This document shows, piece by piece, positions 1 to 25,564 of a stretch of DNA of 25,564 nucleotides. Numbering within the stretch: position 1 is the stretch's first letter; each line of letters starts with the position of its first letter. Origin of the DNA: a virus (lineage: Duplodnaviria; Heunggongvirae; Uroviricota; Caudoviricetes); the IMG/VR virus record IMGVR_UViG_2917860307_000003, positions 1 through 25,564 of that record; one strand, written 5' to 3'. Position numbers and translations under genes: made by a program. Under the pieces are notes generated by a model. That model saw only the letters and a program-made list of their open reading frames with translations. It had not been told where the DNA came from and searched no databases.

Positions 1-1053
1 ATGAAAAATACTGTAAAAATAAACAGTGCTGATTTAATCAACGCTGATTGCCTGCATTTTATTCAGTCCCTGCCTGATGACTCCATTGATCTGATTGTTA
101 CCGATCCGCCGTACTTCAAAGTGAAGCCCAACGGCTGGGACAATCAGTGGAAAGGGGACGAAGATTACCTGAAGTGGCTGGACCACTGTCTGGCCCAGTT
201 CTGGCGGGTGCTGAAACCTGCCGGAAGCCTTTACCTGTTCTGTGGACATCGCCTGGCATCTGATATCGAGATCATGATGCGTGAACGTTTCAACGTGCTT
301 AACCATATCATCTGGGCGAAGCCGTCCGGACGATGGAACGGGTGTAATAAAGAAAGTCTGCGCGCATATTTTCCCGCCACAGAGCGTGTTCTGTTTGCTG
401 AACATTACCAGGGGCCATATTGCGGCAAAAGTGACGGCTATGCGGCAAAAGAAAGGGAACTCAAACAGCACATAATGGCACCGCTGATTTCGTATTTCAG
501 GGATGCTCGTGCCGAACTGGGTATAACGGCAAAACAGATTGCCGAAGCCACTGGTAAGAAAAATATGGTTTCCCACTGGTTTGGTGCCAGTCAGTGGCAG
601 TTGCCGAATGAGGCTGACTACCGGAAGTTGCAGGCACTGTTTTCCCGTATAGCGGCAGAGAAGTTTCAGGAACAACAACTGGAACAACCACACCACCAGC
701 TGGTGGCATCTTATGATTCACTGAATCGCAAATATTCTGAATTGCTGGATGAGTTTAAAACTCTCCGGCGCTATTTCTCCGTATCAGTTTCCGTGCCTTA
801 TACCGACGTCTGGACGCATAAACCCGTTCAGTTCTACCCGGGTAAACATCCGTGTGAGAAGCCTGCGGATATGCTCCGGCAAATAATCAATGCCAGTAGT
901 CGACCAGGCGATCTGGTTGCTGATTTCTTTATGGGATCCGGTTCCACAATAAAAGCAGCAATGGCGCTGGGGCGTCGGGCGTTAGGTGTTGAGCTTGAGT
1001 CAGATCGGTTTAACCAGACGGTGAAAGAGGTAAGTGAACTGGTGGGGAAATAA
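1..1053 (+). CDS. DNA N6-adenine methyltransferase, beta-class (orphan, phage-encoded)
   Basis: 350-aa ORF starting at the window's first base; DPPY motif IV near the N-terminus (IVTDPPYF) and FxGxG motif I near the C-terminus (DFFMGSGST), the motif order of beta-class amino-MTases; no adjacent endonuclease. Confidence 0.85.
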   Translation: MKNTVKINSADLINADCLHFIQSLPDDSIDLIVTDPPYFKVKPNGWDNQWKGDEDYLKWLDHCLAQFWRVLKPAGSLYLFCGHRLASDIEIMMRERFNVLNHIIWAKPSGRWNGCNKESLRAYFPATERVLFAEHYQGPYCGKSDGYAAKERELKQHIMAPLISYFRDARAELGITAKQIAEATGKKNMVSHWFGASQWQLPNEADYRKLQALFSRIAAEKFQEQQLEQPHHQLVASYDSLNRKYSELLDEFKTLRRYFSVSVSVPYTDVWTHKPVQFYPGKHPCEKPADMLRQIINASSRPGDLVADFFMGSGSTIKAAMALGRRALGVELESDRFNQTVKEVSELVGK

Positions 1054-1060
1054 TTCTGGT

Positions 1061-1082
1061 GGCCACGTTGCCTGGCCTTTTT
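1061..1082 (+). terminator. Weak candidate intrinsic terminator downstream of the methyltransferase
   Basis: 5-bp stem GGCCA/TGGCC (1061-1065 / 1073-1077) with 7-nt loop, followed by TTTTT. Confidence 0.3.
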
Positions 1083-1130
1083 ATTTCCAACACAGCACCC
1101 GCAAATAATCGCGAGGTGAGAGATGACGAA

Positions 1131-1467
1131 ATGCCTCATAACCCAAATACCTGGCCGGACTGGCTGGAGTTGTTCCAGAGCTGGTGGCGTGGAGATACGC
1201 CGCTGGGCGCAGTGATTATGTCGATTGTTATGGCTGGTTTGCGTATTGCCTATTTTGGTGGTGGTGGCGGCTGGAAACGAAAATCACTCGAAATTTTTGC
1301 TCTGTGGCGCTCTGACGCTGACATTTGCATCCGCGCTTGAGTATGTCGGATGGCCTAAATCGCTTTCTGTTGCCATTGGTGGTGGGGTGGGGCTGATCGG
1401 GGTCGATGCAATTCGTGGGGCTGCAATGAGAGTAATCGGTAACAAGTTTGGTGGCTCTAAGGAGTAA
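1131..1467 (+). pseudogene. S: Lambda S-like class I holin, apparently frameshifted (N-terminal part in one frame from ATG 1131, C-terminal part in the next frame ending 1467)
   Basis: Frame-3 translation MPHNPNTWPDWLELFQSWWRGDTPLGAVIMSIVMAGLRIAYFGGGG resembles the lambda S N-terminus/TM1; the frame-1 translation (…FASALEYVGW…VGLIGVDAIRGAAMRVIGNKFGG) resembles the lambda S C-terminus; the frame-1 ORF has no ATG (TTG only) and is preceded by an in-frame stop; frames switch within 1257-1290. Confidence 0.5.
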
Positions 1468-1470
1468 TTT

Positions 1471-1947
1471 ATGCAGGCACTAAATTCCCAGCGTAAAGCT
1501 TTCCTCGATATGGTGGCATGGTCAGAAGGAACGGATAACGGGCGACAACCGACACGTAACCACGGTTATGACGTTATTGTTGGTGGTGAACTGTTTACTG
1601 ATTACTCCGATCACCCTCACAAACTTGTCACGCTAAACCCGAAACTTAAATCAACAGCTGCCGGACGTTATCAGCTTCTTTCCCGTTGGTGGGATGCTTA
1701 CCGTAAACAGCTTGGTTTGAAAGACTTCTCCCCCAAAAGCCAGGACGCTGTGGCATTGCAGCAGATTAAAGAGCGTGGCGCTTTACCGATGATTGATCGC
1801 GGTGATATCCGTCAGGCAATCGACCGTTGCAGCAATATCTGGGCTTCACTGCCGGGCGCTGGTTACGGTCAGTATGAACATAAAATCGGTGACCTGATTG
1901 CCCGATTTAAAGAGGCTGGTGGGGTGGTAAATGAAGTTGAGCTATAA
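1471..1947 (+). CDS. R: Endolysin, lambda R-type lytic transglycosylase
   Basis: 158-aa ORF; very close to the lambda R sequence as I recall it (NSQRKAFLDMVAWSEGTDNGRQ…HGYDVIVGGELFTDYSDHP); AAGGAG RBS 7 nt upstream of ATG. Confidence 0.9.
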   Translation: MQALNSQRKAFLDMVAWSEGTDNGRQPTRNHGYDVIVGGELFTDYSDHPHKLVTLNPKLKSTAAGRYQLLSRWWDAYRKQLGLKDFSPKSQDAVALQQIKERGALPMIDRGDIRQAIDRCSNIWASLPGAGYGQYEHKIGDLIARFKEAGGVVNEVEL

Positions 1948-2398
1948 GTTGGTTATCGCTGCTTTCTTCGTTACTGTCATTGGTTCTTTTATCTTTTCAG
2001 CGAATCATTACCACAATAAAGCCATTGAATACAAAAAGCAGCGCGACGAAAACGCAATGGCATTAGATTCGGCTATGGCGACGCTCTCTGATATGCAGAA
2101 GCGTCAACGTGACGTAGCAGAACTTGACGCCAGATATACAAAGGAGCTTGCTGATGCTAACGCGACTATCGAAAGTCTCCGTGCTGATGTTTCTGCTGGC
2201 CGTAAGTGGCTGCGCGTCAAAGCAGTCTGTCCCGACATGCATAAAATCACCGCCGCCTCCGGCGTGGATGATGGCTCCAGCCCCAGACTTACTGACACCG
2301 CTCAACGGGATTATTTCGTTCTCAGAGAGCGCATTGAAACCATAACTAACCAATTGAATGGCCTGCAAGAGTATGTGAGATCACAGTGTTCATATTAG
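1931..2398 (+). CDS. Rz: Rz i-spanin
   Basis: 155-aa ORF with N-terminal TM segment then coiled-coil region; clear similarity to lambda Rz (QRDVAELDARYTKELADA…KAVC…TASGVDD…PRLTDTAQRDYF); start overlaps the end of R. Confidence 0.85.
   Translation: MKLSYKLVIAAFFVTVIGSFIFSANHYHNKAIEYKKQRDENAMALDSAMATLSDMQKRQRDVAELDARYTKELADANATIESLRADVSAGRKWLRVKAVCPDMHKITAASGVDDGSSPRLTDTAQRDYFVLRERIETITNQLNGLQEYVRSQCSY
2154..2345 (+). CDS. Rz1: Rz1 o-spanin lipoprotein, embedded in the +1 frame of Rz
   Basis: ATG 2154 preceded by AAGGAG; signal peptide with lipobox LAVSGC; proline-rich mature part (CASKQSV…PPPPAW…TPLNGIIS) matching lambda Rz1. Confidence 0.7.
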   Translation: MLTRLSKVSVLMFLLAVSGCASKQSVPTCIKSPPPPAWMMAPAPDLLTPLNGIISFSESALKP

Positions 2399-2436
2399 AA
2401 AAGTCTTACCATAAGATTTTTGTATATGGATGCATT

Positions 2437-2811
2437 ATGTCTCAATACGCGCGCGCTGCTTTAATTGCTTATTATTTGGTTGCTGATAATTCATTATCCC
2501 CTCGTGATGCATGGGAGGCTGCAGTCGCTGAGGTTACAGAAAGCGAATCGGCAAGAAAGAAAGGATGCCCAAGGGCAACGTTTCTCGCTCTGACGGATAG
2601 CGGTTATCTGAAGAATGTAAAACCACAGCATGGGGAGAGAAAGGTCGGTAAGTTGTACCAAAGGGCAATTGAAGTTGCGAATCTGATTCTTGATTTGCCC
2701 GGAATCAGCAAAGCTGAGTTAGTTGATAAAACTTGCTATAAAGACAGGCAAGGGTCTTATGACATTGTTCTGACACTCGCTCAGTACGGATTTCTTCAAC
2801 GTCCTCAGTAA
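2437..2811 (+). CDS. Hypothetical protein, 124 aa (accessory gene; function unknown)
   Basis: ORF in a lower-GC stretch between the lysis cassette and packaging genes; start uncertain (ATG 2437 has no obvious RBS; alternative GTG 2386 overlaps the Rz stop); followed by a strong terminator-like hairpin. Confidence 0.5.
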   Translation: MSQYARAALIAYYLVADNSLSPRDAWEAAVAEVTESESARKKGCPRATFLALTDSGYLKNVKPQHGERKVGKLYQRAIEVANLILDLPGISKAELVDKTCYKDRQGSYDIVLTLAQYGFLQRPQ

Positions 2812-2829
2812 GATATCAAGTGATTTATG

Positions 2830-2853
2830 GCCTCGCTTTTAGCGGGGCTTTTT
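2830..2853 (+). terminator. Intrinsic terminator downstream of the 124-aa accessory ORF
   Basis: 7-bp stem GCCTCGC/GCGGGGC (one G-U pair in RNA), 5-nt loop TTTTA, then TTTTT. Confidence 0.55.
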
Positions 2854-3002
2854 CACATCTGAATTTCACTGCGCACCCCACGCGCACATTATCACCCGAG
2901 CCTTTCAGAAAGTTGAGCCTGAGAACTGCCGTATATGGTGGCGACCATCTCGGGGCGGCTTTTCTGTGGGGCAGGCTCAATTTTCTAAAAGGTAATAGCG
3001 CT

Positions 3003-3500
3003 ATGAAAGCAATCACGCTTTTTAATACACCGATCCGTGTTGATGAATCAGGAATGATCTGCCTCACTGACATGTGGAAAGCTAGTGGTAAAAGTGAATC
3101 TGAATCGCCGTACCACTACCTGCGAAACAAGCAGACCAAAGAGTTCTTGGCTGAGCTGGAGAAAAACCACGAATCTGTGGTTTTTACGGAACGCGGTGTG
3201 CACGGTGGAACTTATGGAGGAAAGTTCGTTGCTTATGATTACGCAGCATGGCTAAACCCTGAATTTAAATATGCAGCCTATAAAGTCCTCGATGACTACT
3301 TCACCGGAGAGCTTCAGCATCGCAGCAGCTTAAGTGCACAGCTCAATATGAAGTGTCACGAGTTTGATCAGAAGAAAGATATGGCGAGCTTTTGCGGGCA
3401 GGGACTGGCTGCTTGGCGTTACACCAAGCCAGTTCTGATGGCTGAAATTAGTAACCTGGCTACCCAGCTGCAGCTCACAATACCCGGGCTGCATTCATAA
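3003..3500 (+). CDS. KilA-N (APSES-type) DNA-binding domain protein
   Basis: 165-aa ORF from ATG 3003; N-terminal pattern (ICLTDMWKASGKS…YLRNKQTKEFLAEL…GGTYGGKFVAYDYAAWLNPEF) matches the KilA-N domain as I recall it; the track's upstream extension from 2820 looks non-coding. Confidence 0.55.
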   Translation: MKAITLFNTPIRVDESGMICLTDMWKASGKSESESPYHYLRNKQTKEFLAELEKNHESVVFTERGVHGGTYGGKFVAYDYAAWLNPEFKYAAYKVLDDYFTGELQHRSSLSAQLNMKCHEFDQKKDMASFCGQGLAAWRYTKPVLMAEISNLATQLQLTIPGLHS

Positions 3501-3550
3501 GCGCTCGAATCAATATGCCTACCACACCACTCGTGTGCGGATGAACAGTG

Positions 3551-3679
3551 TCAGCTCATGTAAGACAGCAGATGGTTCAACCATATGTGGAAGTGTTCCA
3601 ATATCCAATTTGCGCAAAGCTTTATTATCATCTTAAGTAAGATATTGATTATCAGATTGATTAAATAATCTTTTTTCAT
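3551..3679 (-). CDS. Candidate small hydrophobic peptide (42 aa) in an AT-rich island; speculative
   Basis: Minus-strand ATG at 3679 with GAGGG 4 nt upstream; my translation is MKKDYLINLIINILLKMIIKLCANWILEHFHIWLNHLLSYMS; below the 60-aa cutoff of the supplied track. Confidence 0.25.
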   Translation of the reverse strand: MKKDYLINLIINILLKMIIKLCANWILEHFHIWLNHLLSYMS

Positions 3680-3773
3680 AATCCCTCTTCAATATTCAGT
3701 TTTAATGGAGGGAAGAATGCGGAGTTTGTGATTTGCGTTGTAGACAGAGAAGAGTTAAACGAGTCGATTTATC

Positions 3774-4124
3774 ATGCCTGCCTTAATCCCCAGAGCCTGC
3801 CGTGTTCGTGGCTGCCGCCATACCACCACAGACCCGTCAGGCTACTGCGAAAGCCACAAAAGCGAAGGCTGGAAGCAATACAAGCCAGGACAATCCCGTC
3901 ATCAGCGCGGCTACGGTTCGAAGTGGGACAGTATCCGCGCGCGTGTCCTGAAGCGTGACAAAGGCCTGTGTCAGTTATGTCTGCGTTCTGGTGTGGTGCG
4001 TGAGGCGAAAACTGTTGACCACATCATCCCTAAAGCGCATGGCGGCACTGATGCTGACAGTAATCTGCAGAGTCTGTGCTGGCCGTGCCATAAGGCGAAG
4101 ACGGCCCGTGAACGGTTAAAGTGA
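3774..4124 (+). CDS. HNH endonuclease (phage packaging-associated)
   Basis: 116-aa ORF with Cys-rich N-terminus and HNH core (VDHIIPKAHGGTDADSNLQSLCWPCHKAKT); sits immediately upstream of the terminase genes, as in HK97-like cos phages. Confidence 0.85.
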   Translation: MPALIPRACRVRGCRHTTTDPSGYCESHKSEGWKQYKPGQSRHQRGYGSKWDSIRARVLKRDKGLCQLCLRSGVVREAKTVDHIIPKAHGGTDADSNLQSLCWPCHKAKTARERLK

Positions 4125-4140
4125 TAATAATTCTCAACTG

Positions 4141-4215
4141 TCTGAGGGGAGGGGCGGGTCAAATCCCTGTGACCTGACGTCTTCCGGACTGCCCGCCCCA
4201 TCGTTTTTTTATACC
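4141..4215. other. Structured GC-rich element between HNH and terS; candidate cos/packaging site or terminator
   Basis: Perfect inverted repeat GGGGCGGG (4151-4158) / CCCGCCCC (4192-4199) enclosing an inner GGTCA/TGACC pair and a GACGTC palindrome, followed by a 7-T run (4204-4210). Confidence 0.35.
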
Positions 4216-4249
4216 CGCGAAAAATGAAATTTAACCAGGAGTGCCGCAT

Positions 4250-4633
4250 ATGGCTGGAACGGCGGGGCGTTCCGGGCGTCGCCCCAAGCCAACGGCGCGC
4301 AAGGCGCTGGCCGGAAACCCCGGCAAGCGAGCCCTGAACAAAGATGAACCCGTTTTTACGCCCATCAAAGGTGTTGAGCCACCGGAGTGGTTCGCTGAAG
4401 AAGAGCTCCCTCTCGCCACGATCATGTGGCAACTGACAACCAAAGAACTCTGCGGTCAGGGCCTGCTGTGCGTGACTGACCTCGCAGTGCTTGAGCGGTG
4501 GTGCGTAGCCTATGAGTTCTGGCGACGTGCCGTGAAAAATATTGCCAGACAGGGCAACACCATCACCGGTGCAATGGGCGGCATGGTCAAAAATCCGGAG
4601 CTGACCGCCAAAAAGAACAGGAGTCCGAGATGA
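4250..4633 (+). CDS. Terminase small subunit (P27/HK97 gp1-like), N-terminal frame; probably continues by a -1 shift to 4743
   Basis: ATG 4250 preceded by AGGAG; Arg/Lys-rich N-terminus (MAGTAGRSGRRPKPTARKALAGNPGKRAL) typical of this family; stops at 4631-4633 while a clean 42-codon continuation exists in the -1 frame. Confidence 0.8.
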   Translation: MAGTAGRSGRRPKPTARKALAGNPGKRALNKDEPVFTPIKGVEPPEWFAEEELPLATIMWQLTTKELCGQGLLCVTDLAVLERWCVAYEFWRRAVKNIARQGNTITGAMGGMVKNPELTAKKNRSPR

Positions 4634-19577: not shown

Positions 19578-20002
19578 TGGAACTGTGGCTGACGGTGAAC
19601 GGTAAACGCACCTGCGCCAGCGCACCGCTGGATCCGCTGACCCGCGCCGTGGTGATTTCCCTGTTTACCTGGCGGCGGGCGGAGCCTGATGACAACGCCG
19701 ACGTCCCGATGGGATGGTGGGGGGATTCCTGGCCTGCGGTACAGAATGACCGTTACGGCTCCCGACTGTGGCTGCTTCAGCGCAGCAAACTGACCAATCA
19801 GCTGGTGCAGACGGTAAGGGGATATATCCGCGAATGCCTGCAATGGATGATTGATGACGGCGTGGTGTCCCGTATTGATCTGGATATCCGCCGCACCGGG
19901 ATTAATGAGCTGGGTAACAGTATCACCCTCTGGCGTCGTGACGGACCGGTAATGATTTCTTTTGATGATCTGTGGAGTGCGATAACGCATGGCGGACAGT
20001 GA
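19574..20002 (+). CDS. Baseplate protein, Mu gp46 family
   Basis: 142-aa ORF overlapping its neighbours; conserved position. Confidence 0.65.
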   Translation: MMELWLTVNGKRTCASAPLDPLTRAVVISLFTWRRAEPDDNADVPMGWWGDSWPAVQNDRYGSRLWLLQRSKLTNQLVQTVRGYIRECLQWMIDDGVVSRIDLDIRRTGINELGNSITLWRRDGPVMISFDDLWSAITHGGQ

Positions 20003-21047
20003 ATTTCAGCGCCCGACGCTGGCAGAAAATATCAGTATGCTCCGTAACGATTTATTCGCCAGGCTGGACGTCAGCGACACGCTCCGGCGCATGGATGAAG
20101 ACGTGCGGGCAAAGGTGTATGCGGCGGCGCTGCATACGGTTTACGGGTACATCGATTATCTGGCAATGAACATGCTGCCTGACCTGTGCGATGAGTTCTG
20201 GCTGGCGCGACATGCTGCGATGAAACGGTGTCCGCGCAAGGGTGCCACAGCTGCCAGCGGGTATATGCGCTGGGAAGGCGTCAGCGATGGCCTGAAGGTG
20301 ACCGCCGGGAGTGTTATTCAGCGCGATGACCTGGTTCAGTACACGGCAACTGCCGATGCAACCAGCTCCGGTGGTGTCCTGCGCGTGCCGATCGCCTGCT
20401 CAAGTGCAGGCGCGGTCGGTAACGCTGACGACGGTACGTCATTAATCCTGGTCACGCCGGTGAATGGTCTGCCGTCTTCCGGCGTGGCAGATACCCTGAC
20501 AGGTGGATTTGATACTGAAGAGCTGGAAACGTGGCGCGCCCGCGTCATTGAGCGGTATTACTGGACACCTCAGGGCGGGGCTGACGGGGACTATGTCGTC
20601 TGGGCTAAAGAAGTGCCCGGCATTACCCGCGCATGGACATACCGTCACTGGATGGGAACGGGAACTGTCGGTGTGATGATTGCCAGCAGTGACCTGATTA
20701 ATCCCATTCCGGAAGAATCAACGGAAACGGCAGCAAGACAACATATCGGGCCACTGGCCCCGGTGGCAGGCTCTGATTTGTATGTATTCAGGCCGGTGGC
20801 ACATACGGTGGATTTTCATATCCGCGTGACGCCGGACACACCAGAAATACGAGCCGCCATTACTGCGGAGTTGCGTTCGTTCCTGCTGCGTGATGGTTAT
20901 CCGCAGGGAGAACTGAAGGTGTCGCGTATCAGTGAAGCGATTTCCGGTGCGAACGGGGAATACAGCCATCAGTTGCTTGCACCGGCGGACAATATCTCCA
21001 TTGCAAAAAATGAACTGGCGGTTCTGGGGACGATTTCATGGACGTGA
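19989..21047 (+). CDS. Baseplate J-like protein (Mu gp47)
   Basis: 352-aa ORF at the conserved position. Confidence 0.7.
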
Positions 21048-21622
21048 CAAACGATGATTACATCCGTCTGTTGTCGGCACTGTTGCCCCCCGGTCCGGTG
21101 TGGTCAGCCAACGATCCGGCGATTGCCGGTGCGGCACCGTCATTAACCCGCGTTCATCAGCGTGCGGATGCCCTGATGCGGGAGCTGGACCCGCGCACTA
21201 CCACTGAACTGATAAACCGCTGGGAGCGTCTGTGCGGTCTGCCGGATGAATGTATTCCCGCAGGGACACAGACCCTTCGCCAGCGTCAGCAACGGCTGGA
21301 TGCGAAGGTTAACCTGGCAGGCGGCATCAATGAGGATTTTTACCTTGCACAGCTTGCTGCCCTGGGCAGACCAGACGCCACCATCACGCGATACGATAAA
21401 AGCACCTTCACATGCTCATCGGCCTGCACTGACGCGGTGAATGCGCCGGAATGGCGGTATTACTGGCAGGTCAACATGCCAGCCGCCACCAACACCACCT
21501 GGATGACATGTGGCGATCCCTGTGATTCCGCACTGCGTATCTGGGGCGACACCGTTGTCGAGTGTGTGCTTAACAAACTCTGCCCGTCGCATACCTACGT
21601 AATTTTTAAATATCCGGAGTAA
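21038..21622 (+). CDS. Tail protein, Mu gp48 / YmfQ-like
   Basis: 194-aa ORF between baseplate J and the tail fibre, as in e14 and Mu-like tails. Confidence 0.6.
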
Positions 21623-21625
21623 TCC

Positions 21626-22396
21626 ATGCATCGTATAGACACGAAAACCGCGCAGAAGGATAAGTTCGGCGCGGGTAAGAACGGTTTTACCCGTGGTAAC
21701 CCCCAGACCGGCACGCCTGCCACCGATCTGGATGATGACTACTTTGACATGTTGCAGGAGGAGCTTTGCAGCGTGGTGGAGGCATCCGGTGCCAGCCTGG
21801 AGAAGGGGCGAAACGACCAGTTGCTTACCGCGCTTCGTGCGTTGCTGTTAAGCCGCAAGAATCCGTTTGGCGATATCAAATCGGATGGCACTGTGCAAAC
21901 GGCTCTCGAAAACCTTGGTTTGGGAGAAGGTTCGGCATTACCCGTTGGTGTGCCTGTTCCGTGGCCTTCCGCCACTCCGCCAACAGGCTGGCTGAAATGT
22001 AATGGTGCTACCTTTGATAAGGTGAAATATCCCAACCTTGCCAAAGCATACCCTTCAGGGAAACTGCCTGATTTACGTGGTGAGTTTATTCGTGGCTGGG
22101 ATGACGGACGTGGCATTGATGCAGGACGTGCTTTATTGAGCATTCAGGCTGGGATGCTGGAGAAGCACCGCCATATTGTTGTTGCCAACGATGGCTATGA
22201 TTCAGGTGAAGAATGGGAGCTGGCTACAATTTTTCAGAACACATACACACAAGGTCGGGGGCTTGACGCCGTTTTTACAGGGGGAACCCTTATTCCGGCT
22301 CCGAGGTTGCATTCACGAGGAAGTATTGGTAACACGGGCGGGAACGAAACACGACCGCGCAATATTGCATTTAACTTTATTGTGAGGGCTGCATAA
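21626..22396 (+). CDS. Tail fibre protein in current orientation: constant N-terminus fused to variable C-terminus Sv
   Basis: 256-aa ORF; a recombination site lies inside it at 21905-21930, so the first ~100 aa are constant and the rest is on the invertible segment. Confidence 0.75.
21905..21930. repeat. Left inversion crossover site (pix/gix-like) inside the tail fibre gene
   Basis: CTCGAAAACCTTGGTTTGGGAGAAGG; its reverse complement shares 15 contiguous identical bases (CTTCTCCCAAACCAA) with the site at 23751-23777. Confidence 0.75.
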
Positions 22397-22998
22397 TGAA
22401 TCACGCGGTATTAAATAACGAACTTATTGCCGTGCAGGAAGGAAACATTATCGTTTACAACTATGACAGTGAGACGCGGGAATATATTTCTGCATCAACT
22501 GAATATCTTGCTGTGGGTGTCGGTATTCCGGCATATTCCTGTTTAGACGCTCCAGGTACACATAAGGCTGGTTATACAATTTGCCGTTCTGTGGATTTAA
22601 AATCATGGGAATATGTGTCAGACCATCGTGGTGAAATTGTCTATAGCACCGAAACAGGGGAATCAAAAGAAATCAAAACTCCGGGTGATTACCCTGAAAA
22701 TACAACCACTATCGCCCCGTCAACGCCATACGATAAATGGGATGGTGAGAAATGGGTGACAGATACTGAGGAGCTACATCACGTCGCAGTAGAAACGGCA
22801 GAAACACAGCGTCAGTCAATGATTGAAACTGCAATGGCTTCCATTAGTCTGATTCAACTGAAATTGCAGGCCGGGCGGAAGCTGATGCAGGCAGAGACCA
22901 CCCGACTTAACACTGTGCTGGATTACATTGACGCGGTGACGGCAACAGATACCAGCACAGCGCCGGATGTTATCTGGCCTGAACTGCCGGAGGCGTAG
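22396..22998 (+). CDS. Tail fibre assembly protein (Tfa/U, expressed orientation)
   Basis: 200-aa ORF overlapping the fibre stop; C-terminus (…TSTAPDVIWPELPEA) matches the C-terminus of the convergent paralogue. Confidence 0.75.
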   Translation: MNHAVLNNELIAVQEGNIIVYNYDSETREYISASTEYLAVGVGIPAYSCLDAPGTHKAGYTICRSVDLKSWEYVSDHRGEIVYSTETGESKEIKTPGDYPENTTTIAPSTPYDKWDGEKWVTDTEELHHVAVETAETQRQSMIETAMASISLIQLKLQAGRKLMQAETTRLNTVLDYIDAVTATDTSTAPDVIWPELPEA

Positions 22999-23410
22999 GC
23001 CATTCAATATCTGGAGCACTGGAAATATCGACCACTTCCAGTGCGTCCAGATAATCCAGCCACAAATTATATTGCGCCAGTTCCTCACCTTTCAGACGAC
23101 CAATAGCTGCTTTACCAGGCCATTGCCTGCTGTTCATGTGTTCGTTGGCAGTATCTATGCGCTTCTGACGCTCGTATTCTGCCATTTTTATCAGTTCTTC
23201 AGGTTCCAGTGGCGGAATATTACCCCATACGGGATAACCATCATCATCCGCAATCCTCATTTTTCCCTCTGGTGGCTTCTGAAATGCAGAAAAAGTTTCT
23301 TCATCAACCTCCACGCCTTTTTCTGGCCATAACCCCACGGATTCATAATGTAATTTCAAAGCCAACGGATAGAAGGCGTTAGTTTTTGCATCATAAATAT
23401 ATTTGTTCAT
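22970..23410 (-). CDS. Alternative tail fibre assembly protein (Tfa'/U', silent orientation)
   Basis: 146-aa ORF convergent with tfa; shares the C-terminal motif (…SSAPDIEWPTPPA). Confidence 0.7.
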   Translation of the reverse strand: MNKYIYDAKTNAFYPLALKLHYESVGLWPEKGVEVDEETFSAFQKPPEGKMRIADDDGYPVWGNIPPLEPEELIKMAEYERQKRIDTANEHMNSRQWPGKAAIGRLKGEELAQYNLWLDYLDALEVVDISSAPDIEWPTPPAVQAR

Positions 23411-23412
23411 TT

Positions 23413-23777
23413 TTATTTCCCTATTGCAATCCAGTTAGCGCCAGCACCCGTTCCGCCAGTACGAGAACTCATTAAATAAAATGCAAGTAGTCCGCCTCCT
23501 GCCGGAGTTGTCGCAAAGGCAGGGCAATCTGTCGCACCGTTAACTGCACTGTCAAAAGACGTGGCAATACGATAACCAGATGTAAAAGGAATCGGGAAGT
23601 TTACAGTTGTTGGATAGCCGATTGGCCCTGCAATACTGACGCCAAACTGTATGATTGTACCATCCGGAAATTTCATCCAGCCTGGCCCCGACGTGAAGCT
23701 AGCCATATCCGGGATCTGATTTACCCCGGTTCCAACCTCCCGTTTTGCCGCTTCTCCCAAACCAACGTTTATGAAAA
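23413..23777 (-). CDS. Alternative tail fibre C-terminal cassette (Sv'), without its own start; fused to the constant N-terminus after inversion
   Basis: Minus-strand frame reads through the right recombination site encoding …GLGE…, in register with the same GLGE encoded at the left site in the fibre gene. Confidence 0.65.
23751..23777. repeat. Right inversion crossover site (pix/gix-like)
   Basis: CTTCTCCCAAACCAACGTTTATGAAAA, inverted relative to the site at 21905-21930. Confidence 0.75.
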
Positions 23778-23831
23778 TACAGAAATAACGAGCAAATGGC
23801 ATCATTCCTGCTTTTGTCAGGGAGATCTACC

Positions 23832-24386
23832 ATGCTTATTGGCTATGTACGTGTGTCAACAAATGACCAGAACACAGATCTACAACGTAATGCGCTGAAC
23901 TGTGCAGGATGCGAGCTGATTTTTGAAGACAAGATAAGCGGTACAAAGTCCGAAAGGCCGGGACTGAAAAAACTGCTCAGGACATTATCGGCAGGTGACA
24001 CTCTGGTTGTCTGGAAGCTGGATCGGCTGGGGCGTAGTATGCGGCATCTGGTCATTCTGGTTGAGGAGTTGCGCGAACGTGGCGTTAATTTTCGCAGCCT
24101 GACGGATGCTATTGATACCAGCACACCGATGGGGCGTTTTTTCTTTCATGTGATGGGTGCCCTGGCTGAAATGGAACGAGAACTGATTGTTGAACGAACA
24201 AAAGCTGGACTGGAAGCTGCTCGCGCACAGGGACGAATTGGGGGACGTCGTCCCAAACTTACACCAGAACAATGGGCGCAGGCCGGGCGATTAATTGCAT
24301 CAGGCGTTCCTCGCCAGAAGGTGGCGATCATCTATGATGTTGGTATATCGACACTGTATAAGAAGTTTCCGGTCGGAGATAAATGA
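23832..24386 (+). CDS. pin: Serine DNA invertase (Pin/Gin/Hin family)
   Basis: 184-aa ORF from ATG 23832; N-terminus MLIGYVRVSTNDQNTDLQRNAL with catalytic-serine context and C-terminal HTH; close to E. coli e14 Pin as I recall it. Confidence 0.9.
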   Translation: MLIGYVRVSTNDQNTDLQRNALNCAGCELIFEDKISGTKSERPGLKKLLRTLSAGDTLVVWKLDRLGRSMRHLVILVEELRERGVNFRSLTDAIDTSTPMGRFFFHVMGALAEMERELIVERTKAGLEAARAQGRIGGRRPKLTPEQWAQAGRLIASGVPRQKVAIIYDVGISTLYKKFPVGDK

Positions 24387-24676
24387 AACCGTAGCATGTC
24401 GTATGCAAGATCGTGCGCGGTTGGCTGGTGAACTTCCGATATTGCAAGTATTGAATTATTTCCAGCCGTTATCGATTTTACGTATTTTTTTGTATGAGAG
24501 GATTTGCACCTCCTCCCACCGACCATCTATGACTGTACGCCACTATCTTTAGGACTGCTATGTGCCAGAGGAAGACGTTTATTTTTACATTGGAAAAACG
24601 CTTGGATCGGTGAACATAAAGACGAGTTTTCCAGATAGAACGCCTGGTCAGTACTGGCAGACCAGACTGAATTTTA

Positions 24677-25564
24677 TCAGGAAAATTTACGGGAGCCTAT
24701 GACGCAGAGGATGACACCGAATGTAATCAGTATCATCAGCGGACTAATGGCTTCATGCAGCAGTGTGGCTGACAGACCCAATCCAAAGAAAGGCTGTAAT
24801 AGCTGTAGCTGACCGACAGCTGCAATCCCGCCAGTAGCCAGTCCCTTATACCAGAATATAAAGCCAATCAGCATGCTGAATAGCGAGACGTAGGCCAGAG
24901 CGAACCAGGCCGATGTAGAAATCCCGCCAAAAGTATCGGGTATTGTCATCAATGAGGCCAACACCATAAAAGGCAGGGAAATAATCAGTGCCCAGCTAAT
25001 GACTTGCCATCCCCCAAGCACTCGGGTCAGTTTTGCGCCTTCTGCATACCCAAGTCCACAAATAACCACAGCGGCAAGCATAAGAAGATCGCCTGTCAGG
25101 GAGACTGTATCACTTTGCATGAAGGCAAACCCTATCACCAGTAGGCTACCCAGAACAGAAAAAATCCAGAACGCTATTGTTGGTCGTTCACCACCTCGTA
25201 GTACCCCAAAAATCGCTGTACTAAGCGGCAGTAGCCCTAAATAAACGATCGAGTGGGCCGCATCAATATGCTTTAGCGCCATCGCTGTAAGTAAGGGAAA
25301 GCCAACAATGACGCCCACAGACACAATAATTAGCGGTGCGAACTGAGCGGCTTGTGGGCGTTTTTCACGAAAGTAATAAACAAGAATCACCGCCAGCGTA
25401 CCGGCAATGGATGCCCGGAGGAAAGTCAGAAAAAACGGATCCATATCAAGCACGGCAACACGTGTGGCCGGTAGGGAACCACTAAAAATGATGACGCCCA
25501 ACAGACCGTTGACCCAACCAGATACTGAACTTGCCGCCATTTTATCTGCCACTGAATTCTCCAT
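24677..25564 (-). CDS. EamA/DMT-family membrane transporter (probably host-encoded); start codon at the window edge
   Basis: 295-aa polytopic membrane protein with about 10 hydrophobic segments; the ATG is the last three bases of the window; convergent with the prophage. Confidence 0.6.
   Translation of the reverse strand: MENSVADKMAASSVSGWVNGLLGVIIFSGSLPATRVAVLDMDPFFLTFLRASIAGTLAVILVYYFREKRPQAAQFAPLIIVSVGVIVGFPLLTAMALKHIDAAHSIVYLGLLPLSTAIFGVLRGGERPTIAFWIFSVLGSLLVIGFAFMQSDTVSLTGDLLMLAAVVICGLGYAEGAKLTRVLGGWQVISWALIISLPFMVLASLMTIPDTFGGISTSAWFALAYVSLFSMLIGFIFWYKGLATGGIAAVGQLQLLQPFFGLGLSATLLHEAISPLMILITFGVILCVIGSRKFS

Follow-up and report, generated by a model that had tools for sequence, protein, structure and literature searches.

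The sequence described here is IMG/VR virus record IMGVR_UViG_2917860307_000003, assigned to the Caudoviricetes, of which positions 1 to 25,564 were analysed; the whole of this stretch of 25,564 nucleotides is called the window. Toward its right end, a tail-fibre gene, two tail-fibre assembly genes (tfa), a second fibre cassette on the opposite strand, and a serine DNA invertase gene (pin) are arranged as in a Pin-type invertible tail-fibre segment. The fibre gene as now assembled is a plus-strand open reading frame (ORF) of 256 amino acids (21626-22396; Pfam Collar, E=3.8e-15). Its first 97 amino acids (21626-21916, plus strand) form a constant N-terminus outside the invertible segment, and its variable collar-type C-terminus (21917-22396, plus strand) lies inside. 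Counted between the central dinucleotides of the two crossover sites, the invertible segment spans 1,847 bp (21917-23763). At the far end of the segment, the minus strand carries an alternative, gp53-like fibre C-terminus cassette (23413-23763; Pfam Gp53-like_C, E=1.2e-10), which is not joined to the constant part at present.

Each fibre form has its own tfa gene directly downstream. The first, a TfaE-type gene of 200 amino acids on the plus strand (22396-22998; Pfam Caudo_TAP, E=6e-30), has a start that overlaps the fibre stop codon (TAATG), and is the gene expressed in the present orientation. The second, a TfaP-type gene of 146 amino acids on the minus strand (22970-23410; Pfam Caudo_TAP, E=2.4e-32), is silent now, behind the silent cassette. 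The two tfa genes are convergent, and their 3' ends overlap by 29 bp (22970-22998). A first-pass annotation of this DNA had described one constant fibre N-terminus with two alternative C-termini, together with two assembly proteins, and the Pfam assignments (Collar and Gp53-like_C for the tips beyond amino acid 97, Caudo_TAP for both tfa genes) agree with that description.

The silent cassette is more than a bare fragment, in that an ATGATG with AGGA just upstream, outside the segment, opens a minus-strand ORF of 130 amino acids (23413-23805; ORF list and Pfam) consisting of a leader and the gp53-like domain. The leader, which lies outside the segment (23778-23805, minus strand), reads MMPFARYFCIFINVGLGE, compared with MPFACYFFIFINVGLGE in K-12, and the 18-amino-acid leader of the ORF agrees with the K-12 stfE leader at 15 of 17 aligned positions. 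Farther to the right, pin encodes a serine DNA invertase of 184 amino acids on the plus strand (23832-24386; Pfam Resolvase and HTH_7). An earlier in-frame ATG at 23796 was considered as the start of pin and rejected in favor of 23832, where the protein begins MLIGYVRVST and GGGAG lies upstream.

Two crossover sites delimit the segment. The best inverted repeat in a search of 20000-25564 was a 20-nt pair with one mismatch (21910-21929 / 23751-23770), within which a run of 15 bp, TTGGTTTGGGAGAAG, is exact (21915-21929 / 23751-23765). Scanning with a 26-bp pattern for the Gin/Cin/Pin site family, TTCTCNNAAACCNNGGTTTNNGAGAA, placed one site at 21903-21928 (one mismatch to the pattern) and the other at 23752-23777 (two mismatches), and these were the only two matches in the whole 25.5-kb window, compared with none in 100 dinucleotide-preserving shuffles. 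The left, pixL-type site (21903-21928) is CTCTCGAAAACCTTGGTTTGGGAGAA, with its central dinucleotide TT at 21915-21916, and the right, pixR-type site (23752-23777) is TTCTCCCAAACCAACGTTTATGAAAA, with its central dinucleotide AA at 23764-23765. Both 26-bp sites have imperfect dyad symmetry, and they stand in inverted orientation with the same central dinucleotide (TT/AA). The inner half-sites and central dinucleotide are identical between left and right, while the outer halves differ, so inversion would regenerate both sites. The first-pass annotation had put the inverted sites at 21905-21930 and 23751-23777, which is right to within 1 or 2 bases, and the 15-bp core that it described as common to them corresponds to the exact run. 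It had also proposed aligning them with known sites of the family. With gix and cix sequences drawn from the Mu and P1 sequence records, the two sites align column by column with gixL/R and cixL/R, and their centre is TT as in cix, compared with TC in gix.

The pattern scan found no extra crossover sites in the window of the kind expected for a shufflon or Min-type multiple inversion. A second inverted repeat from the same repeat search (22917-22934 / 23043-23060; 18 nt, 83%) was rejected as a recombination site, as it falls where the convergent tfa genes share a C-terminal motif (..LDYIDA.. / ..LDYLDA..).

The reading frame is preserved across the two crossover sites. The left site covers fibre codons 93-101 and encodes ..ENLGLGE.., and minus-strand reading of the right site gives ..NVGLGE.. 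with the codons in the same register. Exchange in silico at the TT/AA dinucleotides (21915-16 / 23764-65) joins the constant part to the gp53-like cassette in an uninterrupted, in-frame fusion of 213 amino acids ending ..NWIAIGK, and the ATG of the 146-amino-acid tfa gene comes 3 nt after the end of this flipped fusion. The sites are thus in register, as the first-pass annotation had read them, and the product of inversion is an open fusion rather than an out-of-frame one.

Complete E. coli genomes were queried with the actual left junction and with the in-silico flipped junction. The flipped fusion is present in E. coli strain 181.1 at 98.1% identity across the full 831-nt query, so the predicted 213-amino-acid fibre is a real gene elsewhere; the locus of strain 181.1 is a fixed fusion gene with one site, one cassette, and one tfa, without pin. 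Both orientations occur naturally at the homologous locus in a near-identical series of cattle isolates, which carry the same prophage at the same position in either orientation (e.g., NZ_CP028680.1 and NZ_CP028662.1). Seven isolates are listed with the gp53-like fusion (strains 119, 120, 121, 132, 138, 139, and 140) and 10 with the collar fusion (strains 113-118, 130, 131, 136, and 137). Strains 113 and 119 share the accession numbers of the flanking proteins and the coordinates of the sites, and over the 1,891 nt from one site to the other their DNA is 100% reverse-complementary, with the inversion breakpoints at the sites. In E. coli PSUO2 (NZ_CP011915.1; 3541-6000), a close relative with the same DMT-transporter gene alongside, all that is left of pin is a frameshifted remnant of 116 bp. 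Similarity to the window picks up again past about 2.3 kb of other genes (DUF4145, hypothetical protein), and both fibre cassettes are still annotated.

The closest characterized relative is the P segment of the K-12 prophage e14. Its gene order, stfP-tfaP-tfaE-stfE-pinE, is the same as that here, one collar-type cassette is paired with one gp53-like cassette in both elements, and both have ymfQ and baseplate genes upstream. Each crossover site of the window is identical at 26 of 26 positions to the matching site (left or right) of the E. coli K-12 e14 P segment, the left flanks align at about 99% identity per column, the N-terminal 105 amino acids of the fibre are 97% identical to K-12 StfP, and full-length Pin is 95% identical to PinE. 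By the same counting, the segment is 1,847 bp long here and 1,825 bp in e14. The cassette genes, in contrast, are not the K-12 stfP, tfaP, tfaE, and stfE alleles; the domain types are the same, and the alleles have diverged. The 256-amino-acid fibre is 72% identical as a whole to an in-silico K-12 StfP2, with about 55% in the collar variable part, and the gp53-like variable part is about 25% identical to that of K-12. The 200-amino-acid Tfa is 81.5% identical to K-12 TfaE, whereas the 146-amino-acid Tfa resembles K-12 TfaP only in its C-terminal half (71% identity over the C-terminal 70 amino acids).

By sequence, the element and the e14 P segment are orthologues that carry different cassette alleles, and the first-pass assignment to the classical e14/Mu/P1 type holds through the match of sites, invertase, and constant fibre part to e14. 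The accompanying statement that the segment is in the "Sv orientation" does not carry over, as this label has no fixed meaning for this element. The constant part is fused to the gp53-like cassette in the MG1655 reference and to the collar-type cassette here, so that the present orientation is opposite to the reference and corresponds to the "inverted" state, StfP2/StfE2, of Kirigo et al. (PMC12529663). For e14, sequencing and PCR detected the two orientations side by side in clonal cultures of an MG1655 derivative (PMC4272514), and quantitative PCR puts inversion at about 30% in the wild type, a fraction raised by over-production of PinE or PinQ (PMC12529663). Two further differences concern the surroundings of the element. 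K-12 e14 is a cryptic prophage with pseudogenes, whereas the window has an apparently complete late/structural gene set, and the right-hand neighbour is a DMT transporter gene here versus mcrA/icd in K-12 e14.

The invertase called Pin-like in the first-pass annotation has the makeup of a small serine recombinase of the invertase subclass, whose members have about 185-190 amino acids, a catalytic serine in the N-terminal part, and an HTH at the C-terminus. The catalytic Ser9 is present, and residues 1-181 match the Gin structure 3uj3 (E=9.5e-94), in which the crystal construct has alanine at that position. By invertase and by site type, the locus would be classed with the Din-family inversion systems (Gin/Cin/Pin/Hin).

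Members of this family use a Fis-bound enhancer, and the 5' end of pin, where the first-pass annotation had proposed looking for one, holds a presumed recombinational enhancer identified by homology and conservation. In the P1 record, nt 19-90 of cin are annotated as the Cin enhancer, and the corresponding nucleotides of pin (19-90; 23850-23921) are 76% identical. Fis sites are 15-bp cores with G and C at their ends (PMC4784862), and two 15-mers of this G-N13-C type lie in the stretch. The proximal one (23853-23867; GTGTCAACAAATGAC) has its centre 95.5 bp from the centre of the right site, and in the Hin system about 100 bp run from hixL to the proximal Fis site (PMC3798978). The centre of the distal one (23902-23916; GTGCAGGATGCGAGC) is 144.5 bp from the right-site centre. 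Synonymous conservation was compared across six diverged invertase genes (pin, gin, cin, fin of phage LLS, SEN8, and YenM 56.17). In this small, non-independent sample, synonymous codon pairs were identical in 88% of cases at the first 15-mer and 67% at the second, versus 30% in the interval and 36% over the remainder of the gene; raised synonymous conservation at both 15-mers is what would be expected from an overlapping cis element. These results are consistent with a Fis-dependent enhancer at the 5' end of pin. Upstream of the annotated enhancer, the first six invertase codons (pin 23832-23849, with gin, cin, and fin) show a synonymous identity of 79%, for which constraints on translation initiation or a longer cis element could be responsible.

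In a sequence search of PDB, the collar part of the fibre matched the T4 gp37 tip structure 2xgf (E=2.5e-21) through the common collar region and a C-terminal ..NIAFN(F/Y)IVR.A motif. It also matched short-tail-fibre structures, with a coverage corresponding to the generic collar region of T4 gp37/gp12. The same search gave a weak likeness of the constant N-terminus to Mu S (E about 0.03-0.045) and no solved structural relative for the gp53-like part. An exact 30-mer scan of the gp53-like cassette against species-representative genomes returned 0 matches. The first-pass annotation had placed the special interest of the locus in this specific pair of receptor-binding domains. That emphasis was not sustained, since the two domains are divergent alleles of the usual collar/gp53-like pair and have no characterized close relative.

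We consider it highly probable that the locus serves an e14-family prophage, one with a Mu-like baseplate, as its P-segment/Pin host-range switch. Dimers of Pin would bind both 26-bp sites, and by analogy with Gin, Cin, and Hin, synapsis would take place on a Fis-bound enhancer within the first ~90 bp of pin. Cutting at the central TT/AA dinucleotide, rotation, and religation would then leave the 1,847 bp inverted. The fibre gene would be transcribed from upstream, and since just its first 97 codons lie outside the segment, orientation would decide the product: the 256-amino-acid collar-type fibre with the 200-amino-acid Tfa in the present state, and the 213-amino-acid gp53-like fibre with the 146-amino-acid Tfa in the flipped state. 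A lysogen population would thereby yield virions with two receptor specificities. What the sequences show is the anatomy, the common reading frame, the match of sites and invertase to e14, and both orientations at the homologous locus in nature; for this copy, the switching, its dependence on Fis, and the identity of the receptors are matters of inference.

Several observations weigh against this interpretation. The single sequence of this copy shows one orientation only. The degraded pin of PSUO2, which has the same chromosomal context, means that the switch does decay in some lineages. A promoter/terminator scan of 21400-24700 found no convincing sigma-70 promoter for pin; its matches were no commoner than in shuffles, and none was usefully placed. 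The centre of the distal Fis-type 15-mer is G/C-rich, with A/T at 3 of 7 positions. Finally, the nearest sequenced fibres of isolated phages in translated comparison reach only ~71% for the collar part (vB_EcoM-673R5) and ~51% for the gp53-like part (HeidiAbel_Bas97). Similarity did not reveal the receptor specificity, and none of the best isolated-phage matches carries a citable receptor assignment.

The presence of an StfE2-like ORF raises the alternative that the switch mainly serves the host, a second role of the e14 segment, on the host side, that was recently proposed (PMC12529663) and that the first-pass annotation does not mention. In the present orientation, the lysogen would produce the 130-amino-acid protein of the minus-strand ORF, which would cover outer-membrane receptors and prevent other phages from adsorbing. 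The window shares its orientation with the "inverted" form of K-12, from which StfP2/StfE2 arise, the ORF at 23413-23805 is the positional counterpart of StfE2 with the same architecture of leader plus Gp53-like_C, its ATGs have AGGA just upstream, and Kirigo et al. report that StfE2 lowers T2 adsorption (PMC12529663). However, identity of the ORF to the in-silico K-12 StfE2 is only 33% overall and falls to about 25% in the variable part, so its specificity is not transferable, and the scan of 21400-24700 gave no promoter-like site for it. In addition, the published effect comes mostly from plasmid over-production, with receptor contact derived from docking (PMC12529663), and the classical host-range role would be of direct use to a prophage with what is apparently a complete set of virion genes. 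On balance, we regard a mainly host-serving switch as unlikely. Quite unlikely as well is a dual job in the present orientation, in which the collar-type fibre would equip virions while the 130-amino-acid gp53-like protein, started from the leader on the pin side, masked a host receptor against other phages. If this were true, the prophage would provide an StfE2-like defence with a specificity unlike that of K-12, and the diversity of cassettes in the e14 family would represent a receptor-masking repertoire.

It is very unlikely that the segment is a frozen relic that no longer inverts in this strain and whose second cassette is plain silent DNA. Such an outcome has precedents in the fixed, invertase-less locus of strain 181.1 (one site, one cassette, no pin) and the decayed pin of PSUO2, and the failure to detect a pin promoter points the same way. 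Against it, pin has its full length and its catalytic residues, the active e14 sites are matched exactly by both sites here, and the two silent genes are intact ORFs in which the domain matches are full-length. Invertases of the Pin family other than this one can also act on these sites in trans (PMC12529663). That the inverted repeat is a mere conserved coding motif (LGLGE) of two fibre genes and no recombination site, as the position of the 15-bp core in coding sequence on both strands might suggest, is effectively excluded by the identity of the sites with those of e14 and by the inversion breakpoints of strains 113 and 119 exactly there, and the match is moreover part of a longer dyad site of 26 bp, the outer right half of which falls beyond the cassette.

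Taken as a P-segment/Pin host-range switch, the locus can be compared with other inversion systems. The G segment of Mu has the same layout, with fibre Sc, Sv-U, U'-Sv', and an invertase transcribed away from the right site. It differs in being ~3 kb long, in encoding fibres of ~500 amino acids (213-256 amino acids here), and in having receptor-binding parts unrelated to those in the window. The C segment of P1 belongs to the same site family and has the same TT core, but cin is found at the opposite side with its transcription directed towards the segment, an arrangement that pin does not share; the P1 segment measures 4.2 kb, and its fibre cassettes are unrelated to those here. In Shigella phages of the SfV/SfI/SfII/SfIV type, a short tail fibre plus tfa matches the gp53-like cassette at ~37%. 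In the present searches, the records of these phages matched that cassette only, and they were not among the listed matches to pin.

Nucleotide similarity between the window and fibre/tfa genes of unrelated phages starts exactly at the left crossover site (21903-21916) and runs onward to ~23050. Phages sharing that start (query positions 405-416) are HK97, HK106, pro483, 500465-1, Citrobacter phage Omnitron, and Salmonella MET_P1_103_31. Because phage similarity begins at the site, the site would double as a mosaic boundary for the exchange of cassettes between phage families.

The flanks and the prophage match E. coli at 96-98%. Upstream of the fibre gene are genes for Mu gp48/YmfQ, Baseplate_J, gp46, V, baseplate P, DNA-circularisation, tape-measure, sheath, capsid, portal, terminase, HNH, lysis, and methylase proteins. 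The window thus holds what is apparently a complete late region of a myovirus-type prophage, which makes a virion-level role for the fibres plausible. The left end (1-4633) holds an N6/N4 DNA methylase gene that runs off the window edge, an Rz-type lysis gene, DUF6979, and a KilA-N/ORF11CD3 protein, as well as an HNH endonuclease directly before the small terminase gene, which is ordinary late-region content. At the right end, an EamA/DMT transporter gene lies on the minus strand downstream of pin. The first 200 bp past pin (24387-24586) match unannotated DNA in >100 other E. coli genomes at ~82%, and may represent a prophage end or attachment region that is conserved. The window contains no tRNA gene, and neither a tRNA nor an attachment site was found at its right end.

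This kind of system is already known, and what is particular to the present example is the combination of an apparently complete late gene set with divergent cassette alleles. Its import beyond annotation is small. The locus should be labeled a Pin-type invertible tail-fibre segment, and ORFs named "gp53-like domain protein" and "phage tail protein" should be recognized as one gene in two states. Between assemblies of this prophage family, a 1.85-kb inversion is to be expected as phase variation and should not be taken for misassembly or strain divergence. For the family itself, cattle isolates 113 to 140 are a ready-made natural data set for switching frequency, and an e14 relative with an apparently complete virion set would make both the host-range and the adsorption-blocking roles testable with real virions.

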